From positions 164,742-228,741 of the forward strand of contig CAZAFA010000001.1 in NCBI GenBank assembly GCA_964484655.1: a DNA stretch of 64,000 nucleotides. Reading direction: 5' to 3'. Made by a program: the position numbers and the translations under genes. The notes under the pieces are model-generated. The model did not search any database. It had not been told where the DNA came from and was given only the letters and a program-made list of their open reading frames with translations. Origin of the DNA: an uncultured Candidatus Saccharibacteria bacterium (GTDB lineage Bacteria > Patescibacteriota > Minisyncoccia > UBA6257 > 2-01-FULL-56-20). Position 1 is the stretch's first letter. Each line of letters opens with the position of its first letter. Shown here piece after piece: positions 43,052 to 59,860 of this stretch.

Positions 43052-43135
43052 GGCGCGAGTATAGGACACCGGGCCCCAGGCCGCATTGAAGGCCGCATGA
43101 GGCCTGTGTATACTCGCATCCGCCCTTGAAAACCT

Positions 43136-43222: not shown

Positions 43223-43257
43223 CCGATAGCAAGACGCGCCCTCTGGGGCGCGTCTTG

Positions 43258-44196
43258 CTATGCCTTCCTTTCACGGATCAGCCTCGTGAGGAGCGGACGC
43301 CTCTTGCGATGCTCGTCTGCGACCACCATCTGCCTGATGCTCTCCGGATCGCACCGCCTGATGTCCGCGATCATCTCGATGAGCTGGTCCGCGGTGCTCC
43401 GCGGCATCCTGCCCTGGCGGACGATCTCGCTTTCCAGCGCGTCCTTGAGGTACTGCGCGCTGAGGATGTAGTGACGGCGGATCTGGCTCTCTATCCCTGA
43501 CGGAATCTGCTTGCCGAAGTACGAGCATTGGATGAGCGCCTGCACCATGGAGCGCATCCCGAGCGGCGACTTCTGGATAGCCTCCTTGTCGGAGGCGCGA
43601 TTCTTCCATGCGTCCATGAGACTATCAAGCTCCTCCTGACCGTACCGCACCACGACCTGCGGCACCTTCTGCGCGCCGTACGTGCTCGATGCCCGGTCTA
43701 CGCAGAACTGGTACTTCATCTGCGCGTCTGGATGATGATCCACCCTGTAGGCGATGTCCTTGAACTTCTCTTCGTACTGGTCGAGTCCGGTCGTCAGGTC
43801 GAGCCCGAGCTTCGCCTTCATCATCGGCGCGCCGTCGACGTCCGCTCCGCGCACGGCGGCGACCACGTCGTAGCCGTTCCTCTTGTCGTCGTAGTTGCTC
43901 CACTTGAGCGCGTGGAAGTCCTGCCCGAACCACCGGGCCTGGTCGATGCCGTAGTGTGTCAGCGCCTCCTGGAAGACCGAGTACTTCTTGCCGGCGTCGT
44001 CGGCGTTCTCGTACCGGGGTGCCGACCGATACTCCTTCACGCCCTCGTCGCCGTTGTAGTGAAGCTTGATATCGAAGTCGTTGAGCTCCTCGGCGGCGAG
44101 GTAGGACTTGCTGCTCTCGTAGACCTCGTTGAGCTTGGCCTCCGGACTCTCGGTGCTTATGAGGGCCTTCGCCGCGAAATTCCCGTCGCCTGGCAT
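43258..44196 (-). CDS. hypothetical protein (312 aa), no recognisable domain
   Basis: long ORF with unbiased, Lys/Asp/Tyr-containing composition, GC somewhat lower than neighbours; ends about 35 nt from the tRNA-Tyr 3' end. Confidence 0.55.
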   Translation of the reverse strand: MPGDGNFAAKALISTESPEAKLNEVYESSKSYLAAEELNDFDIKLHYNGDEGVKEYRSAPRYENADDAGKKYSVFQEALTHYGIDQARWFGQDFHALKWSNYDDKRNGYDVVAAVRGADVDGAPMMKAKLGLDLTTGLDQYEEKFKDIAYRVDHHPDAQMKYQFCVDRASSTYGAQKVPQVVVRYGQEELDSLMDAWKNRASDKEAIQKSPLGMRSMVQALIQCSYFGKQIPSGIESQIRRHYILSAQYLKDALESEIVRQGRMPRSTADQLIEMIADIRRCDPESIRQMVVADEHRKRRPLLTRLIRERKA

Positions 44197-45444: not shown

Positions 45445-46134
45445 ATGGCTCAACCGAAGCAATCCAACATCAACTGGGAGGCATGCTCCGCGTTCATGCT
45501 CGAGCAGGCGCTCCTGCTCGAGCAGAGGCTCCCCGAGCTTCTCAAGCAGCACCCTGCACTCGACGCCGATCTTTGGACGGACTCGTATCCGCCCTCGATC
45601 TACGTGACGGTGTGGGTGCCGATGCGTCGCCCGACGAACCGGAAGCGGACCAGCCTCTCGCGCGGTGAGAACAAGCTGATACCCGACGTCATGGCAGTGA
45701 TGACCGACGAGGAGATCGCGGACGCGTCCGCGCTCGTCGCGGAGCTCGCCGGCGACCTCAGGGCTAAGCGCGCCTATCCGCAGGAGGAGACGCATTGCCA
45801 GGTGTACCTGATCAAGCCCGACTACGGCAGGTTCACGTACGCAGCCCTGGAGCGTGCGGCGCGACAGAAGGAAAATCTCGCCGACGGCGTGGCGCTCTTC
45901 ATGCTCCGCGAGCATACCTACGCTATCGAGCACAATCCCAACTGCCCGAAGCCGTACCTGGTCCGCCTCGTCGGCGCGCCGGGCATGCTCGACGGCAAGC
46001 CCGTCCGCGAAACCGAGGATCATCTCGGTTACGGGACGACCCTGAAGGAGGCGGCTGTCGAGGCGCTCCGGAACAAGGCTGAGTGGAAGAACGCGCGCGT
46101 GCCCATACAGAAGGTCGCGGAAGCGGCGAAATAG
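45445..46134 (+). CDS. hypothetical protein (229 aa)
   Basis: GGAGG RBS; unbiased composition; terminator follows. Confidence 0.55.
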   Translation: MAQPKQSNINWEACSAFMLEQALLLEQRLPELLKQHPALDADLWTDSYPPSIYVTVWVPMRRPTNRKRTSLSRGENKLIPDVMAVMTDEEIADASALVAELAGDLRAKRAYPQEETHCQVYLIKPDYGRFTYAALERAARQKENLADGVALFMLREHTYAIEHNPNCPKPYLVRLVGAPGMLDGKPVRETEDHLGYGTTLKEAAVEALRNKAEWKNARVPIQKVAEAAK

Positions 46135-48513: not shown

Positions 48514-49077
48514 CTACTTGACCCGCTCCGTGTACTCGCCGGTCTCAGTGTTCACGCGGATGGTCTCCCCTGCCTCGATGAACTGCGGCACCGCAATCTG
48601 CGCGCCGGTCTCGAGCGTGACGAGCTTGTTGCCGCCGGCGGCCGTGGCTCCCTTGATCACGGGCGGCGCCTCCTTCACGAGCAGGTCCATCTTTATCGGG
48701 AACTTCACCGAGATGATCTTGTCGTTGAAGGTGCGCGCCTCGACAGTCGTGTTCTCCTTGGCGAAGCGACCCTGGTCACCGACGACGTCCGCCGCGAGCG
48801 AGAAGCGGTCCTTAGGATTCTTCGGGTCCGCGAACCAGAACTCGCCCTTGTTCTGGTACAGGAAGCTGTATTCCTTCCGATCCACGTCCGCCTCCTCGAA
48901 GTTGTCGCTCGCCGTGAAGTTGCGGTCGATGACCTTGCCGTTGATGAGGTTGCGCATCTTGGTCTGCATGACCGCCTTGCGCTGCTGCATACGGAGGAAG
49001 CCGGATTCGACGACCTCGTACGGCTGGCCCTCGTAGACGAAGACGACGCCCTTCCTGAGTTCCGAGTATGAGAGCAT
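48514..49077 (-). CDS. efp: elongation factor P
   Basis: start at MLSYSEL..; KOW and OB domains (..VVFVYEGQPYEVVE..). Confidence 0.92.
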   Translation of the reverse strand: MLSYSELRKGVVFVYEGQPYEVVESGFLRMQQRKAVMQTKMRNLINGKVIDRNFTASDNFEEADVDRKEYSFLYQNKGEFWFADPKNPKDRFSLAADVVGDQGRFAKENTTVEARTFNDKIISVKFPIKMDLLVKEAPPVIKGATAAGGNKLVTLETGAQIAVPQFIEAGETIRVNTETGEYTERVK

Positions 49078-49198
49078 GGGAAATCTGTACGTGCTGCTGT
49101 TCACGGCCAGCCTACCGTACGAGCGGCGCGGCGGGCAACCTGTCTTTGACAGGACCGGGCCGCTTCCGCTTCACTATCCCGTACTGGAGGTGAACCCC

Positions 49199-49432
49199 TT
49201 GAAAACTTTTGCGTGCTTTTTCGCTTCGTTCCTGTTTTTGCACGGCTTCGGCGGCATATTCCGTGACCATCTCGGCTCACGGCTCGCCGGGGTCGGCGCG
49301 ATCCTGGTCCTTCTCCTCGTGATCGTGCTGCTCATGATCGGCTTGGAGATCGATGCTCCGCGGACCCGTGCCGGCAAGGCTGCGGCGTTCGGCGTCATCG
49401 CAGCGATACTGCTGACCTGCTTCGGCAGATGA
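49199..49432 (+). CDS. possible small two-TM membrane protein (TTG start)
   Basis: GGAGG 8 nt upstream of TTG; hydrophobic 77-aa product; own-strand terminator follows; weak. Confidence 0.25.
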   Translation: MKTFACFFASFLFLHGFGGIFRDHLGSRLAGVGAILVLLLVIVLLMIGLEIDAPRTRAGKAAAFGVIAAILLTCFGR

Positions 49433-50172: not shown

Positions 50173-50832
50173 TCAGGAGCGTGTCCGAGCCATCCTCACT
50201 GCGGCATACCCGGCCGCGATGCCTACCAGTGCGCCGGCGACCACGTCCGAGAGCCAGTGGAACCCGACCGCGGCGCCCGCGCCGACGACGCATGCCCAGA
50301 TAACCGCCGCTACCCGCCACGAGGTGCGGCGCAGCATCAGGTACAGGACCGTGGCGCCTGCTGCAGCGACAGCCGTGTGATGCGAGGGCCAGCCCCAGAA
50401 GATGCCGTGGCGCCAGAGGCCGAACTGGAAGCCCTGGCTGATGTCGATGCCGACGCCGAGCGCGTCCGGGTGCAGGCGGCCGGTGATTGCCTTGTACGCG
50501 GCGACGATGATCCATACGGATGCCGACGCGTAGAACAGGCTAGTCGCGAGGCGGACACGCTCCGCGATGCGGCGCGACCTGCCGCTCGCATAGAGCCAGG
50601 CAGGCAGCAGCACCGGGACCAGGAAACCACCGAGGCCTGCCACCGCTACTAGGATGCGCAGCGCGGGATGACGCGTCGCCTGATAGAACTGCCAGTCGAG
50701 GCTGGACAAGACGATCGCCGCGGTCGCGATGCATCCAGCGACGTGGAGCATCCAGAGACGCCCGCGATACGATGCGTGAATGTGGTCTATCATCCGCCTG
50801 GCAATGCGGCGCGCTTTCATCTGCCTGGGCAT
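50173..50832 (-). CDS. PAP2 superfamily membrane phosphatase
   Basis: KAITGRLHPD (KxxxxxxRP), PSHH (PSGH) and GFHWLSDV (SRxxxxxHxxxD) motif triad. Confidence 0.7.
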   Translation of the reverse strand: MPRQMKARRIARRMIDHIHASYRGRLWMLHVAGCIATAAIVLSSLDWQFYQATRHPALRILVAVAGLGGFLVPVLLPAWLYASGRSRRIAERVRLATSLFYASASVWIIVAAYKAITGRLHPDALGVGIDISQGFQFGLWRHGIFWGWPSHHTAVAAAGATVLYLMLRRTSWRVAAVIWACVVGAGAAVGFHWLSDVVAGALVGIAAGYAAVRMARTRS

Positions 50833-51317
50833 AACGTGTGCATAATAATAGACCTTTTTCAGTTGACGACGGCATCCCCCGCCCCTAGGATGAGGGCAGT
50901 TGATTTGGAACGGCCTGAACGGCCACTCGGGAAGATCGGCGAAAGCCGCGAAGAGTGAGCCTGGAAGGTTCCGTTATCGATCAAGGATCGACCTCGCAGG
51001 GTTCGCCCTGCATCCCTGGCTCCTCGGAGTCCACGGAGAGGCCGGTAACCTCGATGACGGCAGGCGCTTGATCGCCTGAAATAGGAAAGATTACAGAGGG
51101 CAAGTCCTCGGAACAGGAGCTGCGCAATGCAGCCACCGTGTCCGGTACGGACCCAAGTTGCGGCGGCAACGGGCGCGAGCCTCGTGCTCGCAAAGGAAGG
51201 CCGGCTCGTCCGGCAAACCAAACCCGGTGCGACGCACCAACACCTCACTCACCAGAAACAGATCAACCAAAGTGGCGGCCCAATGCGGGCCGCCTATTTC
51301 GTTGTCGAGCCCGCAGA
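50833..51317. ncRNA. ORF-poor 485-bp region: candidate structured ncRNA (SRP-RNA-like helix motif at 51098..51134) and terminator hairpin at 51270..51292
   Basis: only Arg-rich junk ORFs; motif GGCAAGUCCU-CGGAAC-AGGAGCUGC; palindrome GGCGGCCC-aatg-CGGGCCGCC. Confidence 0.2.
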
Positions 51318-51950
51318 CTAGGACTCAAACTCTCGACAAACTTCCCTCGTGAACTCCCCCACGCGCGTCCTAGTCAGTCCAGCCAAATATGACCCTGCGC
51401 TCAGTACCTCGCCTAGATCACGCGCTAGCGAGCGGATATAGACACCCGGTCCCGTCACATACCGGACCTGCGCTTCTGGCCAGGAGTAGTCGAGGACCTC
51501 GGCCTCGAATACCGTCACCTCGCGCGGCTCCATCGCCACTTCCTTCCCCTGCCGCGCGAGATCGTACGCACGCTTCCCGGCGACATGAACTGCCGAGAAC
51601 GCTGGCGGCACCTGCATCTGTTTCCCTACCTGCCGCGAGACCGCTTCTTCTATTTGCTCGCGCGTCGGAACCGAGACGACCTCGCGCTCGGTTATCGGAC
51701 CCTCGGCATCGTCCGTGGCGCTCGTCGCGCCGAAGCGGATCTTCGCGACGTACTCCTTGTCCGCGCCCACCGCCTCGTGGAGCTTCTTCGTGGCTTCCCT
51801 CCCGACTGCCACCACGAGTATCCCCTCCGCGAGCGGGTCCAGCGTCCCGGCGTGGCCTACCTTCTCGCCCTTGTTCGCGCGACGGATCGCGCCCAGCGTC
51901 CTGAACGAGCTTACGCCTTTCGGCTTCCAGATCGCGAACGTCTCAGCCAT
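51318..51950 (-). CDS. truB: tRNA pseudouridine(55) synthase TruB, short form
   Basis: KPKGVSS...GHAGTLDPLAEGILVV catalytic-Asp motif; 210 aa. Confidence 0.88.
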   Translation of the reverse strand: MAETFAIWKPKGVSSFRTLGAIRRANKGEKVGHAGTLDPLAEGILVVAVGREATKKLHEAVGADKEYVAKIRFGATSATDDAEGPITEREVVSVPTREQIEEAVSRQVGKQMQVPPAFSAVHVAGKRAYDLARQGKEVAMEPREVTVFEAEVLDYSWPEAQVRYVTGPGVYIRSLARDLGEVLSAGSYLAGLTRTRVGEFTREVCREFES

Positions 51951-59792: not shown

Positions 59793-59860
59793 GGGCGAAT
59801 GAAACTAGCCTTTACCGCGATTGTCCACCCGGGGCGGCGCGTGCGATACTCTGCGCGTCT

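Follow-up and report, generated by a model that had tools for sequence, protein, structure and literature searches.

The 485-bp gap between a PAP2-family phosphatase gene and truB in a high-GC Patescibacteria stretch most plausibly holds an independent plus-strand gene for a structured non-coding RNA of ~370-410 nt, a reading to which we give a probability of roughly 0.55. The candidate RNA belongs to no known family and would be under purifying selection in a narrow lineage. The gap lies in the window, by which we mean the whole 64-kb stretch of DNA analysed here, which comes from the candidate phyla radiation (CPR) and has a GC content of ~66%. Bacteria of this radiation have tiny genomes with almost no spare DNA, so a conserved 400-nt non-coding gene is probably functional, and to our knowledge very few non-coding RNAs are known in the group beyond the universal ones. 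If the RNA is real, it would be a new family of a familiar kind, the stand-alone bacterial non-coding RNA gene. If it also has relatives, it would be a new RNA family in a group whose RNA biology has hardly been explored; should it stay limited to two strains, it would be a minor curiosity.

A protein-free gap between PAP2 and truB

The protein-free gap measures exactly 485 bp (50833-51317), with PAP2 on one side and truB on the other:

50173-50832, minus strand: PAP2-family phosphatase (Pfam PAP2, E = 6e-15; GC3 0.82; gene call in L001)
51318-51950, minus strand: truB, tRNA pseudouridine-55 synthase (Pfam TruB_N, E = 1e-46; homologues found)

Three-base GC periodicity, strong in both flanking genes, is absent across the gap; together with the Pfam-confirmed flanks, this bears out the first-pass annotation, which had described a 485-bp protein-free gap at this place. 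The window's TruB shares 82% identity with the TruB of a 'Candidatus Paceibacterota' MAG, and for PAP2 the named homologue comes from 'Candidatus Adlerbacteria'. Genes near the gap include truB, rsmE, dus, an mnmA-like gene, efp, rpsB and tsf (translation and RNA modification), and those neighbouring it all share the minus strand and either overlap or meet at short junctions. Intergenic gaps in the window are mostly shorter than about 60-100 bp. In a crude gene map most of the larger 'gaps' hold an ORF whose GC3 is gene-like, and inspection confirmed one of them as coding; the 485-bp gap is the one long protein-free stretch verified in the window.

The gap was said to contain only Arg-rich junk ORFs, and the ORFs are indeed present, with neither Pfam matches nor protein homologues. 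Their GC3 ranges from 0.50 to 0.69, compared with 0.70-0.96 for the ORFs accepted as genes, for which a GC3 above 0.70 was required. None of the gap's reading-frame fragments of at least 50 residues (8 of the 11 fragments listed) matched Pfam, a 129-aa minus-strand ORF had no homologues among 1.84 billion representatives (phmmer), and a homology search with a 64-aa plus-strand ORF returned that ORF alone. We conclude that the gap is non-coding.

A small-protein gene in the gap is extremely improbable, as is the relic of a protein gene such as the 153-aa membrane ORF (ORF153) that lies between truB and PAP2 in one relative (L012). The public gene caller does predict the 64-aa ORF (51127-51321, plus strand), and ORF153 is a real-looking membrane protein gene at the position of the gap. 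However, the 64-aa ORF passes through the predicted terminator, its C-terminus lies beyond the conservation break described below and differs in the sister strain, its GC3 is 0.69, and it is free of homologues. Neither ORF153 nor ORF159, a 159-aa ORF of another relative (L013), matches anything in the gap (tblastn). Relatives might have carried a protein gene that was lost here, as the first-pass annotation had considered; they carry various genes at this place, none homologous to the gap. A relic would also not be more conserved than its functional neighbours, and a decaying pseudogene would hardly stay 98% conserved, as the block described below is, where synonymous sites differ by 16-45%.

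Conservation and predicted fold of a plus-strand block

The one homologue found of the element is L021, a 1432-nt JGI metagenome contig from a sister strain, which we reached as a cluster mate of the spurious 64-aa ORF. The predicted RNA block is 98.3% identical in L021 (six mismatches and one gap in 409), compared with 91.3% for the PAP2 coding sequence (35 of 403 positions differ, including 21 of 134 third codon positions), 92.3% for the 65-nt promoter region (5 of 65 differ), which is the least conserved part of the gap, and 77.2% for the truB 3' end (29 of 127 differ, including 19 of 42 third codon positions). Divergence in the block is significantly lower than in the PAP2 coding sequence (Fisher p = 5e-6), the promoter region (Fisher p = 0.015) and the truB 3' end (Fisher p = 1e-13), and at 1.7% it is also below that of the first and second codon positions of PAP2 (5.2%, p = 0.012).

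Alignment to the one sister strain shows that this putative RNA gene is a sharply bounded, strongly conserved block. Its left edge falls between 50882 and 50931, a range covering the -10 box and the predicted transcription start. On the right, homology to L021 stops exactly at 51306, the last base of the predicted terminator's U-tail, after which L021 has a 424-bp insertion of 47% GC with a 110-aa ORF, followed by its own truB end. The proposed transcript and its signals are laid out as follows:

50842-50869, minus strand: putative promoter-like site for PAP2, TCGTCA-16-TATTAT (consensus scan)
50863-50891, plus strand: promoter-like site for the RNA, TTGACG (50863-50868), a 17-nt spacer and TAGGAT (50886-50891) (consensus scan)
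50898-51306, plus strand: predicted ~409-nt non-coding transcript, identical with the conserved block (L021 identity, MFE and z)
51274-51306, plus strand: intrinsic-terminator-like hairpin GGCGGCCC-AAUGC-GGGCCGCC followed by UAUUUCGUUGUC (terminator scan of both strands)

The consensus scan of the gap found two promoter-like sites, with 0.2 expected, and the two stand back-to-back in an AT-rich divergent region adjoining the PAP2 start. The predicted transcription start of the RNA is near A50898 on the plus strand. Within the promoter region (50833-50897), four of the five substitutions in L021 lie within the 17-nt spacer, and both hexamers are unchanged. At the other end, a GC palindrome of 8 bp with loop AATGC occupies 51274-51294, and TATTTCGTTG comes next; a palindrome placed where a terminator would sit had been reported at 51270-51292, and it is there, 2-4 nt away. 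The palindrome scored as terminator-like on both the plus and the minus strand, and the hairpin at 51274-51306 probably also terminates the convergent truB. The promoter-like and terminator-like sites are in the right order and orientation and, judged as consensus matches, the hexamers and the hairpin are kept in L021.

Similar signals occur elsewhere in the window. The organism seems to use classical promoter and terminator signals, since both tRNA genes have sigma-70-like promoters (TTGAAG-17-TATACT, 43084-43112; TTGTCC-18-GATACT, 59821-59850) and downstream of tRNA-Tyr lies a weakly T-tailed GC hairpin (43226-43258) that resembles the predicted terminator of the gap. On the PAP2 side, the -10-like box TATTAT (50847-50842, minus strand) lies only ~10 nt from the first ATG (50832), so the PAP2 mRNA may lack a leader, or may start at the second ATG (50820) after a very short one; 50820 is where the public gene caller places the PAP2 start.

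The 409 nt of the block (50898-51306) fold with an MFE of -174.2 kcal/mol, corresponding to z = -3.5 to -3.6 against shuffled sequences. In 46 other 409-nt windows, taken on both strands as a control, z averaged -0.78 (sd 1.26, minimum -3.27); the element ranks first against these, yet lies only ~2 sd beyond the background. The minus strand of the block also folds well (z = -3.2 to -3.4). Thermodynamics alone is weak evidence for a structured RNA. The predicted fold has the following parts:

50899-50907, plus strand: 5' strand of the 9-bp closing helix P1, GUUGAUUUG, pairing with 51259-51267 (MFE and centroid folds)
50912-50970, plus strand: Domain I, a predicted extended hairpin with internal loops and the cap CGGC-GAAA-GCCG (50937-50948)
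50971-51060, plus strand: Domain II, predicted to be branched and closed by a 10-bp helix (50971-50980 with 51051-51060)
51061-51078, plus strand: predicted hairpin CAGGCG-CUUGAU-CGCCUG
51079-51095, plus strand: purine-rich 17-nt linker predicted to be unpaired, AAAUAGGAAAGAUUACA
51096-51246, plus strand: Domain III, predicted to be multi-branched with a GAGG/CCUC closure and five hairpins, and containing the helix motif picked out by the first-pass annotation
51259-51267, plus strand: 3' strand of P1, CAGAUCAAC (MFE and centroid folds)

Domain II is predicted to contain two hairpins, one capped by UUCG (50996-51011) and one at 51013-51037, and two hairpins of Domain III (51175-51191 and 51200-51214) have the pentaloop CUCGU in common (51181-51185 and 51205-51209). 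The loop CUUGAU of the 51061-51078 hairpin is complementary to AUCAAG at 50980-50985, and the two may form a pseudoknot or an alternative fold. More generally, UUGAU and its complement AUCAA occur twice each in the RNA (50900-50904, 51068-51072, 50980-50984 and 51262-51266), one pair as part of the closing helix and the other as the CUUGAU loop and the AUCAAG in an internal loop. GGA motifs of the CsrA type number 11, against ~9 by a rough by-hand estimate from base composition.

We placed the L021 substitutions on a fold of the window's own sequence, predicted without reference to L021 and with 61% of its positions paired. Of the seven differences, six spare the paired bases (permutation P = 0.016), and the seventh changes U50975, opposite G, to give a C-G pair in the 10-bp Domain II helix. 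The Domain I loop changes from GAAA to GCAA, so that GNRA is kept. On the minus-strand fold, two of the differences would strike paired bases, one of them with a pairing probability of 0.83, and six G.U pairs of the plus-strand fold would turn into A.C; the GNRA and UUCG loops read correctly on the plus strand only. This pattern, drawn from seven changes only, is suggestive of the plus strand and of structural constraint. The substitutions are compatible with the predicted fold, and compensatory double changes number zero among 124 predicted pairs in this comparison of two near-identical sequences.

If the block is a stand-alone RNA gene, its consensus matches suggest that transcription would begin near 50898 at a sigma-70-type promoter, back-to-back with the PAP2 promoter, and would end at the GC hairpin and U-rich tail (51274-51306), facing the convergent truB end. 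The ends of the RNA body are predicted to form the 9-bp helix, enclosing three branched domains in which GNRA and UUCG loops cap hairpins. Judging by size and architecture only, the RNA would most likely work in trans, folded and either binding protein or serving as a scaffold; a cis leader or a short sRNA that acts by base pairing would be less likely.

Comparison with known RNA families

A search of the whole 64 kb with Rfam 15 at the gathering score returned two tRNAs only, and ARAGORN found no tmRNA and only two tRNAs in the window. Searches of 651 nt and 376 nt with Rfam 15 at E <= 10 and permissive filters gave only chance matches of 8-14 bits, most of them with models of eukaryotic lncRNAs and a few with bacterial sRNA or cis-regulatory models. 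The models of SRP RNA, RNase P RNA, tmRNA, 6S RNA, group I/II introns and large bacterial RNAs had no match at E <= 10 in these 376-651 nt. The covariance-model check for SRP, RNase P, tmRNA and 6S RNA that had been proposed for the gap thus came back empty even at this permissive threshold.

The suggestion that the gap may encode ffs stemmed from a helix motif loosely resembling domain IV of SRP RNA. The sequence of the motif is present (51099-51123), but the helix is not: the local hairpin has only 4 bp (UCCU, 51105-51108, with AGGA, 51115-51118) around the hexaloop CGGAAC, and in the MFE fold the bases of the motif pair at longer range and the local hairpin is not kept. The likeness to SRP RNA comes down to a short hairpin, a GGAA-containing loop and AGG and AGC-like flanks at 51099-51123; helix 8 of SRP RNA has symmetric and asymmetric loops that the element lacks, and the gap RNA would be about four times the size of a 4.5S-type SRP RNA. 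With no SRP model matching at E <= 10, a 4-bp stem and no GNRA tetraloop, we rejected SRP RNA, which removes a wrong lead: the gap is not an SRP RNA gene. The broader proposal of a structured RNA with a terminator is supported by the layout, the bounded conservation and the placement of the substitutions; its identification as ffs falls.

Other housekeeping RNAs fared no better. RNase P RNA has a conserved P4 pseudoknot in which GGAAAGUCC is paired with an ACAGAA...GGCUU strand; the element matched no RNase P model at E <= 10, and by inspection GCAAGUCCUC has no complementary downstream strand for a P4 helix. For tmRNA there was no ARAGORN or Rfam match, and inspection found no T-loop/T-arm sequence and no CCA end. 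6S RNA is a rod-like helix of ~180 nt with a large central bubble; the element has no Rfam match to it, and its predicted fold is multi-branched and ~370 nt long. That the gap holds a very divergent SRP RNA, RNase P RNA, tmRNA or 6S RNA missed by current models is hardly credible. Size, paired ends and a neighbourhood of translation and RNA-modification genes would fit such an RNA, as would short resemblances such as AGGAAAG and GCAAGUCC, but these have to be set against the lack of any model match at E <= 10 (376-651 nt) or ARAGORN tmRNA, the missing T-arm, CCA end and P4 partner strand, and a fold that is not 6S-like. A housekeeping RNA should also appear in relatives, and the reading-frame translations of the block have no counterpart in other organisms.

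According to a recent paper, divergent group I introns can lie concealed in the tRNA genes of Patescibacteria and escape both RF00028 and ARAGORN (PMC13011429). We considered an intron-containing tRNA because the element's ends pair with each other in the manner of an acceptor stem, and such a gene would share with the element the phylum, the total length (~400 nt) and the paired ends. Inspection showed no D-arm, no T-arm (UUCRA loop) and no acceptor or discriminator context, and unlike these genes the element has its own promoter-like site directly at the 5' pairing strand. We therefore rejected a tRNA with a group I intron, mainly on inspection, since the RF00028 (E <= 10) and ARAGORN negatives are of a kind known to miss divergent introns.

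The element resembles stand-alone structured non-coding RNA genes of 200-400 nt (RNase P RNA, Ms1 and raiA-type) in its predicted promoter and intrinsic terminator, its place between protein genes, its terminal closing helix, its branched domains capped by GNRA and UNCG loops, and a block much more conserved than the neighbouring coding DNA. It differs from them in matching no Rfam 15 family and in being found in two near-identical strains only.

The variable spot after truB and rival explanations

We traced eight TruB homologues, 69-85% identical, to their contigs. The order dus, methyltransferase, truB is kept among these relatives, and the DNA after truB differs every time:

L011: 1786-aa protein
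L012: 153-aa membrane ORF (ORF153), then PAP2, then a small ORF
L013: 159-aa ORF (ORF159) on the opposite strand
L015 and L016: rsmE directly, overlapping truB
L017: ndk
L018 and L019: contig ends

Searching the gap against the truB loci of these relatives and against the rest of the window with blastn and nhmmer found nothing. Conservation of the gap in relatives, which the first-pass annotation had put forward as a check, is thus confined to L021 as the sole homologue found; the syntenic TruB relatives hold unrelated DNA. The nearest PAP2 homologue besides the window's own is 56% identical, and the PAP2 relatives lie in other contexts, with no long upstream gap or comparable leader. Because the post-truB DNA of the relatives is unrelated and PAP2 contexts differ elsewhere, we infer that the interval from truB to rsmE is a variable spot and that the element occupies it, probably along with PAP2. 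The position right after the truB stop (window 51306-51318) is a synteny break in the relatives and in L021 alike, and looks like a recurrent hot spot for insertion or rearrangement.

Wider searches revealed no further homologue. A covariance model of Domain II (R1), run over 208 kb of related loci, found the window and L021 only. An 18-mer (51088-51105) that runs from the 3' end of the linker into Domain III had 30 metagenome matches, all attributable to chance, in AT-richer, unrelated contexts, in a collection that lacks the L021 contig. Four 19-22-mers of the element had no matches in viral contigs, a blastn search in distant mode found no match to the element in phages and plasmids, and an exact EF-P look-up gave the same four contigs only. 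Literature searches on CPR/Patescibacteria non-coding RNAs turned up nothing relevant to the element. On this evidence the RNA appears to be confined to a narrow lineage of high-GC Paceibacterota-like bacteria. We think it quite unlikely that it is the first sighting of a new class, a large (~400 nt) multi-domain RNA specific to a high-GC Paceibacterota (CPR) lineage. If it were, it would be an RNP scaffold or an RNA of ribozyme size, transcribed from its own promoter to its own terminator in a variable spot, and a covariance-model search of all Patescibacteria genomes would reveal more homologues.

The main rival to a plus-strand RNA gene is that the block is non-functional intergenic DNA in a post-truB rearrangement hot spot, near-identical in L021 through a recent recombination or transfer tract. 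We consider this unlikely, though a serious contender. The site varies greatly among relatives (after truB come a giant protein gene, ORF153 with PAP2, ORF159, NDK or nothing), L021 carries its 424-bp, 47% GC insertion right beside the block, and the segment identities of 77%, 91% and 98% show that the genomes are mosaic, so that a 98% block could reflect exchange and not selection. Hairpins are as expected of a 60% GC sequence, control windows reach z = -3.3, and homologues beyond L021 were not found through proteins, the metagenome 18-mer or the 208-kb covariance model. Inert DNA would nevertheless need chance to explain why the few changes avoid paired positions (P = 0.016), and it sits poorly with block edges that coincide with the predicted promoter/start and the end of the terminator tail, and with a block less diverged than the first and second codon positions of PAP2 (1.7% vs 5.2%, p = 0.012).

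A structured element might instead be read from the minus strand, as a spacer or PAP2 5' leader in a dus-methyltransferase-truB-PAP2-rsmE transcript that would regulate or stabilise the downstream mRNA. The short or overlapping junctions of the minus-strand neighbours fit such a transcript, the minus strand is also well folded (z = -3.2 to -3.4), and the palindrome scores as a terminator there too; even so, we regard this reading as very unlikely. The 65 nt adjoining the PAP2 start are the least conserved (92%) and contain a promoter-like site for PAP2 itself. Two substitutions strike minus-strand pairs, six G.U pairs of the plus strand cannot form there, the loops there read as neither GNRA nor UNCG, and PAP2 homologues elsewhere are without such a leader. 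A long structured leader had also been offered as an explanation of the gap. It is unlikely on either strand, with no plus-strand gene downstream and minus-strand conservation lowest near the PAP2 start. The minus-strand, housekeeping-RNA and small-protein or pseudogene explanations fit the data worse.

Two further ORFs are worth recording. The 159-aa ORF of L013 (4647-5126, minus strand), which has no Pfam hit on record, has a distant homologue at window 45445-46134 on the plus strand (tblastn, 25% identity, E = 7e-9). Neither ORF159 nor this homologue matches a PHROG, and the two may represent a small lineage-specific gene family that moves around. Between efp and rsmE, on the strand opposite to its neighbours, the window also has a hydrophobic ORF of ~113-118 aa (49076-49432, plus strand). 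An unannotated opposite-strand ORF of 79-111 aa is called at the same efp-rsmE position in L012, L013 and L015. The window ORF is probably a real, unannotated membrane protein, with the ORFs of the relatives matched to it by position alone.
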